Below are positions 3,538 to 59,287 of a stretch of DNA of 64,000 nucleotides, one piece after another. Positions within the stretch are counted from its first letter, which is position 1, and each line of letters opens with the position of its first letter. The notes below the pieces were generated by a model that had not been told where the DNA came from, made no database searches, and saw nothing but the letters and a program-made list of their open reading frames with translations. This DNA is from a phage. Where the stretch lies: the sequence record PZ445536.1; one strand, written 5' to 3'. A program made the position numbers and the translations under genes.

Positions 3538-3770
3538 AGTACGCCATACACCCTTTGTGCTTCAACTAATCCATCAAAATCCAATTTGAGATGTGTTATT
3601 TGGTCACCATCGCCTGGATTCACAATTACTAATACTGAACGAGGAGTTTCGGTAATAACACGAACCGATGTTTCAGGAAATCGTTCAGAAACCTTATTTA
3701 CCAATTCCTGAGCAAATAGTTTAACTTTTTCTTGGAATTCTTTAACAGTAATTGGTTTTTCACTTAGCAT
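3534..3770 (-). CDS. hypothetical protein (78 aa)
   Basis: ORF with GAGGAAA SD; early promoter at 3801-3830. Confidence 0.6.
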   Translation of the reverse strand: MLSEKPITVKEFQEKVKLFAQELVNKVSERFPETSVRVITETPRSVLVIVNPGDGDQITHLKLDFDGLVEAQRVYGVL

Positions 3771-3800
3771 TTCAATTTCCTCATTTATTTTGGTAGAGCT

Positions 3801-3830
3801 ATAATATCACAACTCTACCGTAAAGTAAAC
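3801..3830 (-). promoter_or_regulatory. T4-type early promoter (-35 GTTTAC, 18 bp, -10 TATTAT)
   Basis: rc gtaaac 3825-3830; rc ataata 3801-3806. Confidence 0.5.
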
Positions 3831-3832
3831 TA

Positions 3833-4108
3833 TTAAATTGCTTTGAATTCTGATGTCTGCGATTCAAAACGAATATCGCCTTTAATGACTAGCTCAGCAT
3901 CAAGACCGAATACGACAATGATATGCGCGGAACCTGGATACAGCGTAATGGCGATAGAATCAACCTGGTCTGGAAGCAAAGTGTTCAATACATGAGTCAC
4001 TTGAGCATGAATTCGAAGCTCAGCTGCGTTATCAAGCTTTTCAAACATATTATTAGCGATAATTTGGCTAAACACTACTTCTACGATTTTAGAATAAGTC
4101 GGAAACAT
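3833..4108 (-). CDS. hypothetical protein (91 aa)
   Basis: ORF in cd-pseT interval. Confidence 0.6.
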   Translation of the reverse strand: MFPTYSKIVEVVFSQIIANNMFEKLDNAAELRIHAQVTHVLNTLLPDQVDSIAITLYPGSAHIIVVFGLDAELVIKGDIRFESQTSEFKAI

Positions 4109-4110
4109 AT

Positions 4111-4311
4111 TTACCTCACATAATTTTCTTCAAGCCAATCAATAACATCCAACGCATTATCAAAAGTTGAACCATCTACTTTGTCTTCTGTTTCATAATC
4201 AAGAACATCTAAGCCTACTCTTCCATCAACAATAGGCCATAAACAAAATAGATATTTCTTTTCTTTTTCAATCTTATCGCAAAGACGATAAATCTTTTCT
4301 AAGTTATTCAT
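4111..4311 (-). CDS. hypothetical protein (66 aa)
   Basis: ORF in cd-pseT interval. Confidence 0.55.
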   Translation of the reverse strand: MNNLEKIYRLCDKIEKEKKYLFCLWPIVDGRVGLDVLDYETEDKVDGSTFDNALDVIDWLEENYVR

Positions 4312-4500
4312 AAGTTTTCCATGGTAAAGGCAGTTTAGTTTTCTTTACTGTTAGTTCAACATCGGGATTCTTTTCTCTTAATTTAAGACATTCCTCCCAA
4401 GCTCTGATTTCACTAGTGAAAACACAAAATTGACCATTACTAGTACCGACTAAACCACTATTTACAATAATAATAGCCCAAGTTTCATGATGCCACGCCA

Positions 4501-37072: not shown

Positions 37073-38010
37073 TTATTTAAATTGTTCAGTAACGTCTTCA
37101 ACTACTTCGTATTGGCAGGTACGCATTTTAGCATCGTTGTAATCAATCGGAATTGATACTACATCACGCGGATGTACTTTAACTTTTACGACTCGGCTGG
37201 TTGAACTGCCAAAGTGACGAATATAAGATTTAGAACACACATGCAGACCACGAGAACAAGTTTGTGTATCATCGTCATTCACACGAGTACGTGGCATTTT
37301 AACTACTTTACCCGGACTGTTATCAAAGGTGTTTGAGTGACAGTCAAAGTAATTGCTGCGAACTACTTTCCAAGCATAGAAGTAACCATCTTCTGTAATT
37401 TCAATATCGTTTGCTACCAAGAAATCAAAGAGTCGAGATACCGCTTTTTGGCTTGGGTTTTCCAGCAGATTTTCCAAGAACGGAAAATAAAATTCAAAGT
37501 TTTCGCCTTTTTCCATCGAATCAAGAATACGATCAACTAAACCAGACCGCAATTCAATATTTTGATAGAACAAGCTTCCACCTTCAATTCGAACATCGCC
37601 GGAAATATATTTTTCAACAGCGCGACGAACATTAATTTTTGTGCAGCTTCTTCCAGCTTATCTGTTACAAGCAGATTAAGAATTTCCTGGAAGTTTGAAT
37701 GAGTATTAGGAGTTGCGTTATAAGTTACACCCTCAACAGTAATTGAAATGAATTTTTTAGATGCATTCCAAATAATGTCAGATTTAGCAACTGGAGCAAT
37801 AACTGCATCGCTATTAACTTTAACTGTAATATCACCACTAATAGTAACTTTAGGGCGTTTAGCTTCTTCAGCATTTTTCAAAACACGACGGATTGTGTCA
37901 ACCGATACATCCTTCCAATAAGCTAATTCCTGCTGAGTGTAATTACCACTTGAATACAGTTTAACAATTTCAGCTTGTTCGTTTTTGGTCAGGCATTTAA
38001 TATTGTACAT
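37073..38010 (-). pseudogene. rIIB: rIIB, split by an apparent -1 frameshift in an A5 run (two ORFs 37537..38010 and 37073..37573)
   Basis: N-terminal ORF begins MYNIKCLTKNEQAEIVKLYSSGNYTQQELA (rIIB); reading frame shifts after ...LEEAAQK at coding-strand CAAAAATTAATG (+ strand T-run 37636-37640); restoring one A gives a continuous ~312-aa protein (...AAQKINVRRAVEKYISGDVRIEGGSLFYQNIELRSGLV...). Confidence 0.8.
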
Positions 38011-49932: not shown

Positions 49933-50535
49933 TTATAGATTAAATCCTTCAAAATCAAGAGTATAGATAGTATATGTTGAATACTTTTTATACTCATATC
50001 TATCTGCAATTCTAAATACACTTCCAGCTGGTATCATTACTTCTTGTTCATCTGAAACTAATTCCATATTACGATAACGATGGCTATCCGGAAACTTAAA
50101 GTTTGGATTGTATTCTTTACAGCGTAGAGCTTTTATAGCATACTCCTGGAAATTGAATACCATAGGAGCTTTGAATTCAAAAATAACCTGTGTGTTATAC
50201 TCTAAACCGGAAGCAAAATGTAGAGCTATATTTTTATCATATGAAGCTGATACTACTTTATCAAATGTAATAATATCAATTCCTTGATTTAATATTTGTT
50301 TAGTCTCGACTGGAACACCTCTCCAAAGAGGTTTATCGTTTGGAACCAAACGAGATTTGATTATTTCATTTAACCAAGTATGGTCATCTGGCTTATTAGT
50401 AATACAATGAATTAAAAGTTCAATTTCAGATAAATTAAACCCTTCAGAAAGTAATTCTTCACGAATAGAAGCACGCACCGATGCATCCATTGATTTTATT
50501 TTAAAATCTTTTAGTTGCATTACTGAGTATTTCAT
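49933..50535 (-). CDS. modA: ModA ADP-ribosyltransferase
   Basis: 200 aa (T4 ModA length); R-S-E ART motifs (LWRG, VVSAS, EQEVMIP). Confidence 0.8.
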   Translation of the reverse strand: MKYSVMQLKDFKIKSMDASVRASIREELLSEGFNLSEIELLIHCITNKPDDHTWLNEIIKSRLVPNDKPLWRGVPVETKQILNQGIDIITFDKVVSASYDKNIALHFASGLEYNTQVIFEFKAPMVFNFQEYAIKALRCKEYNPNFKFPDSHRYRNMELVSDEQEVMIPAGSVFRIADRYEYKKYSTYTIYTLDFEGFNL

Positions 50536-51157
50536 TCAACTACCTCAATATCATAAACTTTAAATGTTCCAAATGAATCGTGTAATTTTTCTTTTGAAAT
50601 AGAAGTTATTCTATACTTTCCAATTGGAATCATCCATTCTTGTTCACGCACAATCATCATTAAGTTATCAGTACGCTCTGAATCTAGCCCATCAGTATCT
50701 TCATACGTGTACTTGAACTCAGTATTAGGAGAAGAAAGTATAATATCGCTGATATGGTCAGAATAATTAAAAGCTTTATCAGTTTTTAAGCGAAGTATTA
50801 TTTTAGTAAAATATTCAGCATAAGAAAAAGAACATGCTGTGAGTAAACTAGTAGTAAATGAATCTACTCTGTTCGTTGAAAACACTTCTCCAACTTGTAA
50901 ATCTTTTTAATAAGTTCTTCTGTTGATTTTGATATACCACGATATAGCTGATAAGGTGATTTAGTTAAATGCTTTTTAATGATTTTATTCAATTGCCGAT
51001 GAAGAGCTTCATTCTTTTTAGCTTCCATACATTGCCAAAGAACAGACTGCTCAAAATCAGTAAATTTTTCACAGACCTTTTTATACATATCATATTGAAA
51101 ATCGACGCTTTCAGCTTTTATAGATAACTGTTCAACATCTGCAAGATTAATAATCAT
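50532..51157 (-). pseudogene. modB: ModB ADP-ribosyltransferase, split by an apparent -1 frameshift in an A5 run (ORFs 50864..51157 and 50532..50885)
   Basis: N-terminal ORF carries the R motif (QLYRGISKS) and ends at 50864; overlapping ORF carries STS-like (VFSTN) and catalytic EQEWMIP motifs; coding-strand run ATTAAAAAGATT (+ strand T5 50904-50908); one extra A would give a continuous ~207-aa protein. Confidence 0.6.
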
Positions 51158-54617: not shown

Positions 54618-54818
54618 ATGGTACAAAAATTAATGGCACTTGTTAATGCCATAAAAGGTAATAAAAAACGTATAGCTTTTACTATTTCTGCTATGGTAGG
54701 AATTTTACTCTGGAACTTTATTCTATCACCTGTTGCAATTGCGCATGGTATTAATATTCCAGTAGTTACTCTTGATACATTTGTAGATTTAGCATTTGCT
54801 TTAGTTGGGTTGATTTAA
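54618..54818 (+). CDS. small hydrophobic protein on + strand (66 aa), uncertain
   Basis: ORF with strong AAGGAGG SD 5 nt upstream; two predicted TM segments; lies opposite to all neighbouring genes. Confidence 0.35.
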   Translation: MVQKLMALVNAIKGNKKRIAFTISAMVGILLWNFILSPVAIAHGINIPVVTLDTFVDLAFALVGLI

Positions 54819-55843
54819 ATCTTAGCATATTTAGATAGCCGCATTTTAGCCATCAACCCCTGGGCAATATTATTTTTCATATATTCCATAATTTGTTCAG
54901 GGGTTGCACCTTCCTTTCTAATCATATCATTGACATCTTTTGATTTCCAGGGAGATTTATCCCAAAACATAACCCTTTCTCCTGCATCAACTAATTTAGT
55001 CATTCGTTTGATAGTGTCAGGGTGACGAGGTTCATTATCTAAAACCCACACTCGTCTATCTTTAAATGGAACAACTTCTAGGTCTAATTGACCACCTGTA
55101 ATAGCTATACCATTTTCAATAAAAAGTGAATCTATAGGTCCTTCTAGGACATATACATCACCATCTTTAACTCGTTCAACACCGTAAATTTTTGTTGCCT
55201 CAGGATAAGCTTTAATGGTGATATATTTTTGAGGAGCATCTTTCTTTAATGCACGTCCTTGAAAAGACTCAGCTTTTCCATTAGCATTATAAATTGGAAT
55301 AACAAGACGAGGCTCAGAAATTTCCTTTTTGTATGTTCCCGGTGCTATGCTATTAACTAATTTAGGCCATTCGGTTGTAAACCAAAGATATTTCCATTTA
55401 TCCTTTGGAATACAACGAGCTTTTACATATTTTATAATTGGATGGTCTTCCGCCAGTTTATCTAATCTAACACATGACGGAAGAGATTTAATTATTTTCT
55501 TCTCAGGTTGCTTAGGAAGTTCTTTAGGTTTTTCTACTGGACGACTTTTACCTTTTTCTTTTCTTATTTCAAAGATATACTCACGATATAAATCAGGTTC
55601 AAACTCCTTTAAATATATTCCGATTGGTGCATGATAATTACAGTTATAACAATGAATATTTCCTTCATTATTATCACCATAATACCATCCACGAGCTTTA
55701 TTCTGGTCGGTTTTTGAATCTCCACAAACAGGACATCTAAACCGCAATTTAAAAGTTGAACTATTATTTACTTGTGTGAATTTAGGTAAATGAGCCAATG
55801 CACGATACGCAAACTCATTATCAATCCAAGGTATTGATGACAT
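54815..55843 (-). CDS. 61: gp61 DNA primase
   Basis: 342 aa (T4 gp61 length); N-terminal zinc ribbon CPVC...CYNC and Toprim domain. Confidence 0.9.
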   Translation of the reverse strand: MSSIPWIDNEFAYRALAHLPKFTQVNNSSTFKLRFRCPVCGDSKTDQNKARGWYYGDNNEGNIHCYNCNYHAPIGIYLKEFEPDLYREYIFEIRKEKGKSRPVEKPKELPKQPEKKIIKSLPSCVRLDKLAEDHPIIKYVKARCIPKDKWKYLWFTTEWPKLVNSIAPGTYKKEISEPRLVIPIYNANGKAESFQGRALKKDAPQKYITIKAYPEATKIYGVERVKDGDVYVLEGPIDSLFIENGIAITGGQLDLEVVPFKDRRVWVLDNEPRHPDTIKRMTKLVDAGERVMFWDKSPWKSKDVNDMIRKEGATPEQIMEYMKNNIAQGLMAKMRLSKYAKI

Positions 55844-55845
55844 TT

Positions 55846-56010
55846 TTACTCTTCTTTTTCTTTAGATTCCTCTTTTTTCTTTTTAGGAATCTGTTCAGGA
55901 CCTTTATTTACTACAGCGCCTGATGTTGTTCCAGTAGAGATATTTTCAGGACTACCACCTGAATCTCCAGCGACCATATCTTCTTTGATAAATTCTTTAT
56001 ATGTTTTCAT
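55846..56010 (-). CDS. small hypothetical protein (54 aa, K/E-rich C-terminus)
   Basis: Hand-translated ORF MKTYKEFIKEDMVAGDSGG...; below ORF-track cutoff. Confidence 0.4.
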   Translation of the reverse strand: MKTYKEFIKEDMVAGDSGGSPENISTGTTSGAVVNKGPEQIPKKKKEESKEKEE

Positions 56011-56059
56011 ATTAACCTCTATTCATAAAAGCATTAAAAATTTGGTCATCAATAGATGG
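56008..56059 (-). repeat. 52-nt duplicated gene-end cassette (copy 1)
   Basis: About 90 percent identical to 56366-56417; spans stop codon and last ~12 codons. Confidence 0.7.
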
Positions 56060-56368
56060 CGCAGTAATATTTTCTGCATCATTTAGCAAATCATTAATTT
56101 CATCAGATAGCATAACACATGTACCTTTATTTCCCGTAATTGTTACTGCGCAATTACGAACGTTTTCTTTATTAAATTTTAAGTTAATATTTTCGTAATG
56201 AAAATCCTTTAATGCTGAATATATTTTTAAAATAAAACTGTCTTTTACTACAATAAACCCAACCTCACTATTAAAACGTGGTTCATGGAAACTGTAATAA
56301 ACCTTTTCATCTATAAAATCGTATGAAATTTTTTCCATTTTTAAATATGAAAATTCAGAACTATACAT
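56012..56368 (-). CDS. hypothetical protein, 61-41 interval paralog 1 (118 aa)
   Basis: C-terminus SIDDQIFNAFMNRG shared with next ORF; GFIVVKD core. Confidence 0.6.
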   Translation of the reverse strand: MYSSEFSYLKMEKISYDFIDEKVYYSFHEPRFNSEVGFIVVKDSFILKIYSALKDFHYENINLKFNKENVRNCAVTITGNKGTCVMLSDEINDLLNDAENITAPSIDDQIFNAFMNRG

Positions 56369-56417
56369 ATTAACCTTTATTCATAAAAGCATTAAAAATT
56401 TGATCGTCAATAGAAAC
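56366..56417 (-). repeat. 52-nt duplicated gene-end cassette (copy 2)
   Basis: See 56008-56059. Confidence 0.7.
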
Positions 56418-56786
56418 TTTTACTTTAGGCTGTTCTTCAAACGGTAATTCATATCCACATATTACAATTTTGTGATCGATACCAAAATACACAGAAGCAA
56501 TATGATTAATGATGTTTTCAGTAAAGTCTAAATTAACATCAATATCTTTTTGACCACAGCCCAAAGGATAAATAATGCGAGTAATTCGATTATCTTTAAC
56601 AAATATTCCACCGACATACTCTGTGCTGCGTTTAAAGTTTACACGTTTCCTAAATGAAAAATATTCAGGTTCTTTATGGGCTCGACTCATAGGGCTTAAA
56701 GTGTATTCCGAATATGAAATATCAAATCCTACACCTTCAATATGAGCCAAAGTGTCATGATTAAACCAATTATAATCGTATGCCAA
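56370..56786 (-). CDS. hypothetical protein, paralog 2 (138 aa)
   Basis: GGIFVKDNRITRIIYP core and SIDDQIFNAFMNKG C-terminus. Confidence 0.6.
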   Translation of the reverse strand: MAYDYNWFNHDTLAHIEGVGFDISYSEYTLSPMSRAHKEPEYFSFRKRVNFKRSTEYVGGIFVKDNRITRIIYPLGCGQKDIDVNLDFTENIINHIASVYFGIDHKIVICGYELPFEEQPKVKVSIDDQIFNAFMNKG

Positions 56787-57004
56787 ATATCCATTAAATT
56801 GTAATATGTGAAAGGCACCGGATTAACATCATATGTTGTACCTTTAAAATCTGCCCAGGCAACGATTTCGTTATCTTTAACAATTACAAAAATTGTGCCA
56901 ATAAGATATCCACGGTTATTTTCATCAGGCGTTATATTATAACATTGTGCATCAGGAAATTTACCGTATTTAAACGGTGGATTTTTGTGCATATAATAAA
57001 TCAT
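56729..57004 (-). CDS. hypothetical protein, truncated paralog 3 (91 aa)
   Basis: GTIFVIVKDNEIVA core similar to paralogs 1-2 but lacks the shared C-terminus; overlaps next ORF by 58 nt. Confidence 0.45.
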   Translation of the reverse strand: MIYYMHKNPPFKYGKFPDAQCYNITPDENNRGYLIGTIFVIVKDNEIVAWADFKGTTYDVNPVPFTYYNLMDIWHTIIIGLIMTLWLILKV

Positions 57005-57005
57005 A

Positions 57006-57299
57006 TTATTCGCCTGTGATTTCGGTTACGATATTTTTGTTATTAAAGTTTTTATCGCAATACAGAACATAATTATACTGCATTACACCACCAGACTTAA
57101 GTTGTTTTTGCACTTCAGCTTTCATTTCAGGACGATCGCGCTCAACGATATTCATAATATCCGCTTCAATTTGAGTTTCAACTTCAGTCTGATCTGCAGT
57201 CATAGACCATTCACACAAATCTTTATCATATCCTGCCATAGCAGGCTGAGCAGCACAAGAAGCCAAAGTAAAAATTGTAGCAAAAATAAATTTTTTCAT
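57006..57299 (-). CDS. putative lipoprotein (97 aa)
   Basis: Signal peptide with lipobox LASC. Confidence 0.6.
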   Translation of the reverse strand: MKKFIFATIFTLASCAAQPAMAGYDKDLCEWSMTADQTEVETQIEADIMNIVERDRPEMKAEVQKQLKSGGVMQYNYVLYCDKNFNNKNIVTEITGE

Positions 57300-57359
57300 G
57301 ATAATCTCCTCAGTAGTTTATGTTTATATAGTATCTCAATTTCCAACAAAAGTAAACAG

Positions 57360-57617
57360 CTATTTTAAAACTTCTGCGTAATCACATGTTACAAACTGTT
57401 TCTCTAGCTTAACGATTTTACGAAAATACCTTTTATACTGACGAATCTGCCTCTTCGTAGGACGTACAGCAAACTTAATAAATTCCACTCGACCAAATGG
57501 AGGACTTTCTTCTGCTGGAATATCTAACACCAATTCCCACGTATCTGCAATAAGTGCTTTGAATTGAGTATTTTTCCTGACGTTATACGGAGTAGGTTTA
57601 AATAAAACAATATGCAT
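57360..57617 (-). CDS. hypothetical protein (about 85 aa)
   Basis: ORF 57360..57671; internal start chosen to avoid overlap with dmd. Confidence 0.5.
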   Translation of the reverse strand: MHIVLFKPTPYNVRKNTQFKALIADTWELVLDIPAEESPPFGRVEFIKFAVRPTKRQIRQYKRYFRKIVKLEKQFVTCDYAEVLK

Positions 57618-57618
57618 A

Positions 57619-57801
57619 TTATCCTCGGCAATCCACTTCGCACACTTTCTTGTCATCAATGAAAGCTTCAACTAATGCTTTATTAACTTCAGCATATTGA
57701 GTAGTAGCCCATTGAACGTCATCTTTCATCATTGTGATTTCTTTAGTAAACATGCTTTCATTCTTAAACCACCCCATAAAAACTACCTTTACCAATTCCA
57801 T
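57619..57801 (-). CDS. dmd: Dmd (antitoxin against host RnlA/LsoA mRNA endoribonucleases)
   Basis: 60-aa ORF at T4 61.5/dmd position adjacent to gene 41; identity by size and synteny and partial recall. Confidence 0.65.
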   Translation of the reverse strand: MELVKVVFMGWFKNESMFTKEITMMKDDVQWATTQYAEVNKALVEAFIDDKKVCEVDCRG

Positions 57802-57830
57802 AACAATCTCCTCATTTAACCAACAAGACT

Positions 57831-57860
57831 ACTATACCATAGTCTTGTCAGCTTGTAAAC
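57831..57860 (-). promoter_or_regulatory. T4-type early promoter (GTTTAC, 18 bp, TATAGT) with 8-bp inverted repeat around the -10
   Basis: rc gtaaac 57855-57860; rc actata 57831-57836; IR caagacta/tagtcttg at 57824-57831 and 57840-57847. Confidence 0.5.
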
Positions 57861-59287
57861 TAAAATTTTAATTCATTTGCCAAAGCATCTAACTGAGCTC
57901 GAGCTGATTCGTTTCTTTGATAGCGATTCTGTTCAGCCTGAATCTGTTGTGAACCTGCTACTTCACTCACTTCAGTTGGAGTAGAATCTTGTTCAATTTC
58001 TACCCATTTCTGATTTCCCTTTTGAACACCCATTAAAAACTTATTCCACTTATTCTTATCGCCATATCGTGATTTGATTTGCTTAATGAGTTGTTGTTCA
58101 GCAGCTGCTAGCTCCTCGGTTTCAATGACCGCAAGCATAAAATCAGCTGTTGCTGGAAGACCAGCAGATTCTGCAATATCGCTCATGTTAACATCGGAAG
58201 AGTCCCAAGCTTGTTTACCGACCTGTGCTGCAGTCCAAAGAACAGTTTCGGTTTCAACAGCCAGAGCACGCAATTCCTCTGCAATAGCTTTAACAGTTGT
58301 GTAACTATTTTCTGAATAAACTCTGATGCGGCAAGATTTACAAATACCTAGATAGTCGACAATAATGATTGTTGGAACAAAATTCTTCTTGAGCTTCAAT
58401 TCATTCAAGAGAGACCTGAATGTGTTAGCGTCTGCTCCACCAGTAGGATACTGTTTAACGATTAAACGACCAAGGGTAGATTTCTCACGCCATTTTTCCA
58501 TTTTTCCTTTATATTCAGCGTAAGAAATATGCCCATCATCAATGTCATCAAGAGAAACATCAAGCATGTTAGCGTCAATACGCTTAGCACAGACTTCTTC
58601 TGCCATTTCCATGGAAATGTAAAGAACATTATGTCCGAGCTGCAAATAATCTGCTGCCAATGAACACAATCCTAATGACTTACCAACGTTAACGCCAGCC
58701 ATTAAAACGTTCAGTGTTCCAGTCTCAGCTCCGCCTTTAGTAATTTTGTTCAGAATTCTGAGTTTAAATGGAACCTTACGAGCTTTATTCATATAAGATA
58801 GCCAACGTGCTTCGTAGTCATCCATCCAATCATGACCAACGTAACTATCAAATGAAATTGATAATGCTTGACGCATGATGTCAGGAATAGCACCAACATC
58901 CGGCATTTTCTTATTTCGTTTTTCCGGAGGAAGTTCAGCATTAGTTTGAATTTCGATTATTTTAGACGTAGCATTAAACATCGCCCTTTGCTGAACATAT
59001 TTTTCTGTTTCTTTTATTAACCAACTGTGGTCTTCCGGAGAATCAGCCAGTTTTGAAATAAGTGTTTTTACACCAGAATATTCTGTTTCAGTAAATGAAC
59101 TATTTTCTAATGCAACATTTAACGCATTAATAGATGGAACGCTATGATACTCATTGACATGAGATTTAATTAATTTGAATGTATTTTTAGCTGGACCACT
59201 TTCAAAATATTCTGAATCCATATATGGCCAAACTTTTGAAAAATAAGCTTGATCAAATATGAGATGAGAAAGAATAATTTCTACCAC
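57860..59287 (-). CDS. 41: gp41 replicative DNA helicase (DnaB-like)
   Basis: 475 aa (T4 gp41 length); Walker A GAGVNVGKS. Confidence 0.93.
   Translation of the reverse strand: MVEIILSHLIFDQAYFSKVWPYMDSEYFESGPAKNTFKLIKSHVNEYHSVPSINALNVALENSSFTETEYSGVKTLISKLADSPEDHSWLIKETEKYVQQRAMFNATSKIIEIQTNAELPPEKRNKKMPDVGAIPDIMRQALSISFDSYVGHDWMDDYEARWLSYMNKARKVPFKLRILNKITKGGAETGTLNVLMAGVNVGKSLGLCSLAADYLQLGHNVLYISMEMAEEVCAKRIDANMLDVSLDDIDDGHISYAEYKGKMEKWREKSTLGRLIVKQYPTGGADANTFRSLLNELKLKKNFVPTIIIVDYLGICKSCRIRVYSENSYTTVKAIAEELRALAVETETVLWTAAQVGKQAWDSSDVNMSDIAESAGLPATADFMLAVIETEELAAAEQQLIKQIKSRYGDKNKWNKFLMGVQKGNQKWVEIEQDSTPTEVSEVAGSQQIQAEQNRYQRNESARAQLDALANELKF

Follow-up and report, generated by a model that had tools for sequence, protein, structure and literature searches.

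The region between genes 61 and 41 of a T4-like phage (Tequatrovirus), within the 64,000-nucleotide stretch of DNA analysed here (the window), had been read as a cluster of three paralogous open reading frames (ORFs), two of which end almost identically through recent tandem duplication or gene conversion. This reading raises two questions: how many genes the locus really holds, and what has kept the two gene ends alike. Taken as a whole, the evidence makes it highly probable that the locus consists of a disrupted adfA gene followed by an intact short paralog, and that the C-terminal tail common to both has been kept by selection. The locus lies on the minus strand and runs from gene 61 to gene 41, with 61.1, sp (spackle), 61.4 and dmd as neighbours, and the features needed to follow the argument are these:

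54815-55843, minus strand: gene 61 (primase).
55846..56010, minus strand: gene 61.1 (54 aa), from the ORF list, matching phrog_1823 at E 2e-33 and so annotated in T4 and T2.
56008..56056, minus strand: repeat copy 1, made of the last 14 codons of the short paralog (SIDDQIFNAFMNRG), TAA, one base and the 61.1 ATG (56008-56010), which sits within this copy.
56012..56368, minus strand: short AdfA paralog, 118 aa (RB32ORF033c family, phrog_4122).
56366..56414, minus strand: repeat copy 2, made of the last 14 codons of adfA (SIDDQIFNAFMNKG), TAA, one base and the ATG of the short paralog.
56370..57004, minus strand: adfA (gp61.2, anti-DarT factor A), 633 nt plus 2 inserted bases, seen as two overlapping ORFs.
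56370..56786, minus strand: C-terminal part of adfA, 138 aa from a TTG (ORF list, Pfam AdfA).
56729..57004, minus strand: ORF of the N-terminal fragment of adfA, 91 aa, in which about 72 native codons precede 18-19 out-of-frame ones and the stop.
56787..56790: site of the 2-nt insertion, after adfA codon 72, where the plus strand has CCAAATATCC against CCAAATCC in relatives.
57006..57299, minus strand: sp (spackle), the upstream neighbour, Pfam T4_Spackle E 5.8e-45.
57860-59287, minus strand: gene 41 (helicase).

The window and Shigella phage ESh18 have 99.7% nucleotide identity over the 1,471 nt from 61.1 to sp, a region of which 80% or more is covered in 111 phage records; over the wider 20 kb, none of the phage records matches above ~97%. 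In the locus census, sp marked the gene slot in all relatives examined, and in the window adfA was found where it is expected, between sp and 61.1.

The upstream ORF (56729-57004) had been proposed to be a decaying or frameshifted third copy, overlapping the next ORF by 58 nt. The overlap is confirmed by the ORF list, and the ORF is indeed the product of a frameshift, but it is not a third, decaying copy: it consists of the first 72 codons of adfA. Comparison with other T-even phages, which had been suggested as a check, revealed one 633-nt gene in close relatives where the window shows two ORFs. ESh18, Ec_O157kw, 303Ecol101PP and GiZh all carry this single gene at the interval corresponding to 56370-57004, labelled 'anti-DarT factor A', '24.3 kDa protein' or 'gp61.2', and along the adfA stretch the window differs from ESh18 only by one substitution and the insertion of 2 nt after codon 72 (minus strand GGAT[AT]TTGG, plus-strand 56787-56790). 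When compared with the Pfam AdfA profile (211 positions), the two window pieces matched positions 1-74 (133 bits) and 74-211 (311 bits), one ending where the other begins, and together covered the whole profile above the gathering score, while the intact ESh18 protein scored 454 bits. Since the two ORFs abut on the profile, the TTG at 56786 is an artefact of ORF calling; the first in-frame ATG of the C-terminal piece is at 56690. On these comparisons, the ORFs 56729-57004 and 56370-56786 are one gene, adfA, the gp61.2 gene of T4, and the single uninterrupted frame of 208-216 codons is absent from the window adfA, being split at 56787-56790. As written, the sequence can yield only a 91-aa N-terminal fragment and not the intact 210-aa AdfA, and a C-terminal fragment would be possible only with a restart of translation. 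Thus, of the predicted cluster of three paralogs, the relationship between the ORFs 56012-56368 and 56370-56786 stands and the count does not: the locus is two tandem AdfA-family genes, joined stop-to-start as in translationally coupled genes. Separately, a perfect 15-nt inverted repeat in adfA (56456-56470 / 56796-56810), which adjoins the insertion, was considered and discarded, as 24 of 300 shuffles gave one of at least this length.

We asked whether the split might itself be functional, either through programmed frameshifting or as a deliberate separation into N-terminal and C-terminal products. The piece starting at ATG 56690 (106 aa) would have an architecture like that of the short paralog, and this ATG lies 38 nt beyond the stop of the N-terminal fragment. 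However, inspection of the sequence showed no ribosome-binding site before ATG 56690 or TTG 56786, and neither a slippery heptamer nor a stimulatory RNA structure was found. The insertion is, moreover, not conserved, and none of the other records searched has it: with a 68-nt query spanning the site, 55 phage records were retrieved, all matching at 66/68, all in frame and none with the 2 extra nt. The frameshifted 25-mer likewise had no exact match in IMG/VR viral contigs, where the intact version had 1. We therefore regard a functional split as barely credible.

A harder choice is that between a sequencing or assembly error, with adfA intact in the real phage, and a genuine loss-of-function mutation. 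Comparison with GiZh disclosed two further split genes in the window, each with an indel in an otherwise identical context, so that three frameshifts, unique among related records and each at a short repeat, argue for error:

56787-56790: adfA, +2 (AT to ATAT), change present in 0/55 related records.
~50907: modB, +2 (T3 to T5), change present in 0/350 related records.
~37641: rIIB, -1 (T6 to T5), change present in 0/346 related records.

Nonetheless, rIIB and modB are dispensable genes in the laboratory, as is adfA, and among the essential genes compared no split ORF of at least 80 aa was found; essential genes left unsplit and dispensable ones hit is the pattern expected from selection on real mutations. 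Two of the three changes are +2, whereas the usual homopolymer error is a single base. Natural loss of adfA is also seen elsewhere, with an independent 10-bp deletion in Elenatom and no such gene in T2, and the deletion of adfA from T4, which produced no phenotype (PMC11257639), counts toward real loss as well. We give the error a chance somewhat below even, real loss of adfA being about as probable from the sequence. As a matter of data quality, three frameshifts unique to this record in 64 kb mean that the underlying reads need checking.

Contrary to adfA, the downstream gene is undamaged. The ORF 56012-56368 is a full-length member of phrog_4122 (E 1.6e-71), and 115 of its 118 residues are identical to a T2 protein labelled 'gp61.2' in the T2 record; the short paralog is the gene carried by T2 in place of adfA. 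It occupies the same position, directly upstream of 61.1, as the other phrog_4122 proteins (116-125 aa), and nothing sets it apart within the RB32ORF033c/T2 'gp61.2' family. By tblastn, the short-paralog gene was found in 333 phage records and full-length adfA in 487, and records carrying a T4-type adfA plus the short gene occur too. The short family is narrow, since only seven clusters among 1.84 billion proteins match its profile.

Its similarity to AdfA falls on the C-terminal half of the larger protein. BLASTP aligned residues 21-118 of the short ORF with AdfA 111-210 (35% identity, E 5e-9), Pfam AdfA scored 29.6 bits on it against a cut-off of 27, at profile positions 113-211 only, and the short-family profile in turn found AdfA residues 112-210 (E 4e-8, among 1.84 billion proteins). 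With the AdfA N-terminal domain (profile 1-74) there was no match, 224 of 2000 shuffles being as good. Much of the similarity signal comes from the tail: once the last 14 residues were removed, the Smith-Waterman score was 50, reached by 14 of 2000 shuffles (p ~0.007), and tail-free hhalign gave P 1e-3 to 3e-3 over 39 collinear columns. The short paralog thus corresponds to the C-terminal half of AdfA, and common descent of the two bodies is likely but not certain.

In AlphaFold2 models, the short paralog (pLDDT 83.9) is predicted as a single domain with five strands, a helix, a short strand plus helix and a floppy linker, ending in a low-confidence tail helix, and AdfA, in a model of low confidence (pLDDT 67.7), as two five-strands-plus-helix units with a disordered linker between them and the same tail helix. 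The predicted five strands and helix are common to the short paralog and to each AdfA half, and the 'GxIFV(I)VKD' motif lies on the third strand of each predicted unit. This motif, which the original prediction had placed in all three ORFs, is indeed present in all of them, but significant homology is confined to 56012-56368 and the C-terminal part of the gene; neither the N-terminal occurrence nor homology of one AdfA half to the other was significant by sequence (229 of 2000 shuffles as good), and an internal duplication of AdfA, to which the models lend themselves, is no more than plausible. Foldseek searches of viral models returned only relatives of this locus, including a 118-aa protein at 44% identity and further proteins of 157, 212 and 145 aa, whose lengths and source phages fit the AdfA family and a further family, X; no solved structure or known fold matched. 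X is a ~145-aa protein (phrog_8539) found in other T4-like lineages and absent from the window, and it has the same slot after sp and the same invariant tail as the AdfA family. Its fold match to the short paralog is weak (Foldseek E 9e-5 and 6e-4), and outside the tail no significant sequence similarity was detected (111 of 2000 shuffles; hhalign 0.07). We therefore did not retain a homology between X and AdfA, for which nothing spoke except predicted secondary structure and the weak Foldseek matches.

We then come to the gene ends. The repeat is real: 46 of 49 bases agree between 56008-56056 and 56366-56414, whereas after shuffling 55800-57350 (100 times) the top-scoring 49-nt direct match had a mean of 29.4 and did not go beyond 34. 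The longer 52-nt span, given earlier as about 90% identical, matches at 46/52 (88%), and the nearly identical peptide ends were likewise found, both ORFs finishing in SIDDQIFNAFMN(R/K)G (SIDDQIFNAFMNRG and SIDDQIFNAFMNKG). The explanation offered for them, a recent tandem duplication, finds no support in its extent: only 49 nt are alike, ~35% of residues outside them are common to both genes, and we found no high nucleotide identity over a whole duplicated unit, no such unit being visible.

There are points in favour of the two gene ends owing their likeness to recent tandem duplication or to gene conversion that is still going on, namely a block 94% identical beside bodies with ~35% of residues in common, a difference of 3 nt between paralogous tails within a lineage against 7 between orthologous tails of different lineages, and, in the metagenomic locus L020, an X-gene tail that has CAG and TTC in common with the adjacent gene, a feature not seen in the X tails of L018 and L019. 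Yet lineage-specific codon preference could likewise make paralogous tails similar, and selection alone explains why the tail peptide does not vary among distant lineages or among three gene families. Furthermore, the lysine/arginine (AAA/AGA) difference between the two tails is retained in all seven Tequatrovirus genomes with two tails (7/7), and tail differences number 2-3 within a genome and 2.2 on average between genomes, so that tails are no closer within than between. Recent duplication or ongoing conversion is, in our view, quite improbable. Of the predicted gene conversion, no ongoing sign was seen in these seven two-tail genomes; an older conversion of the tails is possible from the sequences compared, and the L020 locus looks converted.

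Selection on the tail peptide accounts better for the pattern. A tail of the form S[IV]DDQIFNAFM[NK][RK][GD] ends every family protein surveyed; it is invariant in AdfA, the short paralog and X across several T4-like lineages, and it is kept even in loci that have only 67-71% identity to the window in spackle and ~61% in primase. No other part of these proteins is as conserved. Between lineages its third codon positions differ while the amino acids stay constant (CAA/CAG, GCT/GCC/GCA, TTT/TTC, AAT/AAC), the codons of the two tail aspartates varying as well, and since this synonymous drift has left the amino acids unchanged, selection acts on the tail peptide. An identical tail block, reckoned from the two codons ahead of the tail through its stop to the following start codon, occurs in T4, T2 and four metagenomic loci, and a degenerate DNA pattern for the tail found only this locus in IMG/VR. 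All this points to the repeat being the common 3' end of the family, in old paralogs whose tail peptide is strongly selected. On this view it is selection for the peptide, and probably for the junction signals as well, and not recent duplication, that would have preserved the likeness of the 49-nt copies; the tail itself is modelled as a terminal helix that follows a flexible linker.

Conservation might alternatively concern mainly DNA or RNA, the tail serving as a translational-coupling cassette or a recombination linker and not for its peptide. The tail block does hold a stop, a ribosome-binding site and the next start, the GAGG lying in the last two codons of the tail, with the stop, and the next start coming one base on (GAGGTTAATATG); the boundaries of presence/absence variants also coincide exactly with the block. 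But the junction is served by only the last ~10 nt of the block, and the upstream 11 tail codons keep their amino acids despite third-position variation between lineages. RNA folding at the junctions was no better than that of shuffles (z -1.6 and +0.2), with two predicted folds that differ, and a promoter and terminator scan of 55700-57900 gave 16 hits against 12.1 ± 3.8 by chance. Conservation mainly as DNA or RNA is thus unlikely, and we retain selection on the peptide. Binding of the tail to the sliding clamp (gp45) was also considered and rejected, the resemblance of SIDDQIFNAFM to the clamp motif being loose and out of register; in the same comparison, gp43 of the window ends in ASLDFLFG and gp33 in TLDFLL.

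The arrangement of these genes varies among phages. When the stretch between sp and gene 61 was surveyed in reference phages and in 19 metagenomic phage loci, the following orders were distinguished (AdfA lengths in brackets):

sp-adfA(210)-short-61.1: the window, ESh18 and metagenomic locus L007.
sp-adfA(208)-61.1: T4.
sp-short-61.1: T2 and metagenomic locus L006.
sp-adfA(216)-...: metagenomic loci L016 and L017, with a 216-aa AdfA like the RB69 protein.
sp-X-... and sp-X-short-like-...: other T4-like lineages.
sp, then a divergent short member alone: metagenomic loci L043 and L045.
No family member: metagenomic loci L022-L024.

Aligned to the window, T4 shows one clean gap of 358 nt (~56057-56414), exactly one repeat period, whose flanks are mostly at least 87% identical per 30-nt block; one tail copy is retained, which sits on an AdfA body and shows the codon variants found in the downstream copy of the window. 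A crossover within the block would produce such a tail, the direction of the event (loss or gain) not being readable from it alone. T2 and L006, which are without adfA, have a 14-nt remnant TAGAGGTTAGTATG (the tail end) between sp and the short gene. We infer that the block, recurring at successive gene ends, may act as a homology patch for recombination, T4 being the window arrangement minus one repeat period and T2 the same arrangement minus adfA. Modular shuffling at conserved gene boundaries of T4-type genomes, with promoter-plus-stem-loop cassettes between genes, was reportedly described by Arbiol and colleagues in 2010. As in this reported shuffling, short conserved junction sequences coincide here with presence/absence boundaries; unlike the cassettes said to operate there, the window block is coding sequence plus a coupling junction and has no promoter or stem-loop signal.

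The locus is, then, a known counter-defence gene together with a known, uncharacterised short relative. Published work, cited here through PMC11257639, presents AdfA as a small protein able to neutralise DarT1, a DNA ADP-ribosyltransferase toxin, apparently through binding to it. AdfA is gp61.2; the R164H variant of the RB69 protein binds DarT1 in a two-hybrid assay and neutralises it, and a histidine equivalent to RB69 position 164 is present in 10 of 13 adfA homologs in a set of 17 phages (PMC11257639). In the window, the equivalent of RB69 AdfA residue 164 is His167 (210-aa numbering, codon 56502-56504), the offset having been worked out from the RB69 primers and start given in PMC11257639 and from the compared sequences. 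The window allele would thus be of the 'active' type if intact, and the frameshift predicts no DarT1 neutralisation by adfA from the sequence as written.

T4 adfA is dispensable against the tested DarTG1, since AdfN (gp30.3) does the job, and the authors proposed that T4 AdfA targets another DarT variant (PMC11257639). In the same study T2 lacking adfN was sensitive to the tested DarTG1, and T2 was counted as having no adfA homolog (PMC11257639), whereas it does carry the short paralog. The sensitivity of T2 lacking adfN implies that the short paralog alone does not counter the tested DarTG1.

A division of labour within these proteins may be envisaged, in which the variable body would set target specificity and the tail would be a shared functional module. 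Extending this to the locus, we put forward, tentatively and with real doubt, that the slot downstream of sp is a diversifying counter-defence slot, in which different bodies (the two-domain AdfA, the one-domain short paralog, X) are combined with an invariant 14-residue helix. This helix would serve all of them for docking or as an effector motif, its counterpart being a conserved partner from host or phage or else a conserved DarT-like toxin surface, and each body would target a different toxin variant.

For annotation, the three ORFs become two genes, one of them a disrupted adfA, and the short gene, found in T2 and ~330 other phage records, is better labelled an AdfA-family relative than 'gp61.2' or 'hypothetical'. 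What is left over, of modest interest, is the invariant tail common to three gene families. If the reading of the slot as one of counter-defence were true, the short paralog would be an unrecognised anti-defence protein.

Two further genes in the window are interrupted by small indels, each leaving a pair of shorter ORFs:

37073-38010, rIIB: indel at about 37641, one T lost from a T6 run; ORFs of 157 and 166 aa.
50532-51157, modB (ADP-ribosyltransferase): indel at about 50907, a 2-nt TT insertion; ORFs of 97 and 117 aa.

Neither change recurred in related phage records, the rIIB T loss being found in none of 346 and the modB TT insertion in none of 350. Gene 61.1 of the window is intact, encoding 54 aa. 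At 55879 the related phage GiZh differs from the window by 4 nt within a T-rich run, and its record carries no 61.1 annotation.

Disruption of adfA (gene 61.2, anti-DarT factor A) was also seen in Escherichia phage Elenatom (PP925844.1, 701-1323), where a 10-bp deletion at codons 93-96 breaks the gene independently and the record labels the remnants as two hypothetical proteins. An adfA homolog has been described as absent from T2 (PMC11257639); the T2 sequence (MH751506.1, 973-1329) contains the short paralog, a 118-aa member of the AdfA family, labelled 'gp61.2' in its record.

Among the surveyed loci, two from a divergent T4-like contig (L043 and L044, 871-1491) carry an HNH endonuclease gene, with the helicase gene on one side of it and the dmd cluster on the other. 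The primase gene region of locus L012 (4331-5960) is fragmented into several short ORFs and starts with a 176-aa ORF without a match to the reference genes, which may reflect insertion of a mobile gene or poor assembly.

The gene 61.4 product of the window belongs to Pfam family DUF7279. In the ORF list, the gene (57360-57671) begins at a TTG and overlaps dmd; this longer ORF is probably an artefact, since the product annotated in relatives is 85 aa long and matches the window ATG at 57617. Nine loci from other T4-like lineages (L010-L015 and L018-L020, approximately 3729-4317) encode a 73-aa protein with 34-41% identity to gp61.4, flanked by 61.1 and by a tail-bearing gene, that is, one of the genes ending in the invariant 14-residue tail. 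Therefore, a second copy of gene 61.4 is also present at this locus.
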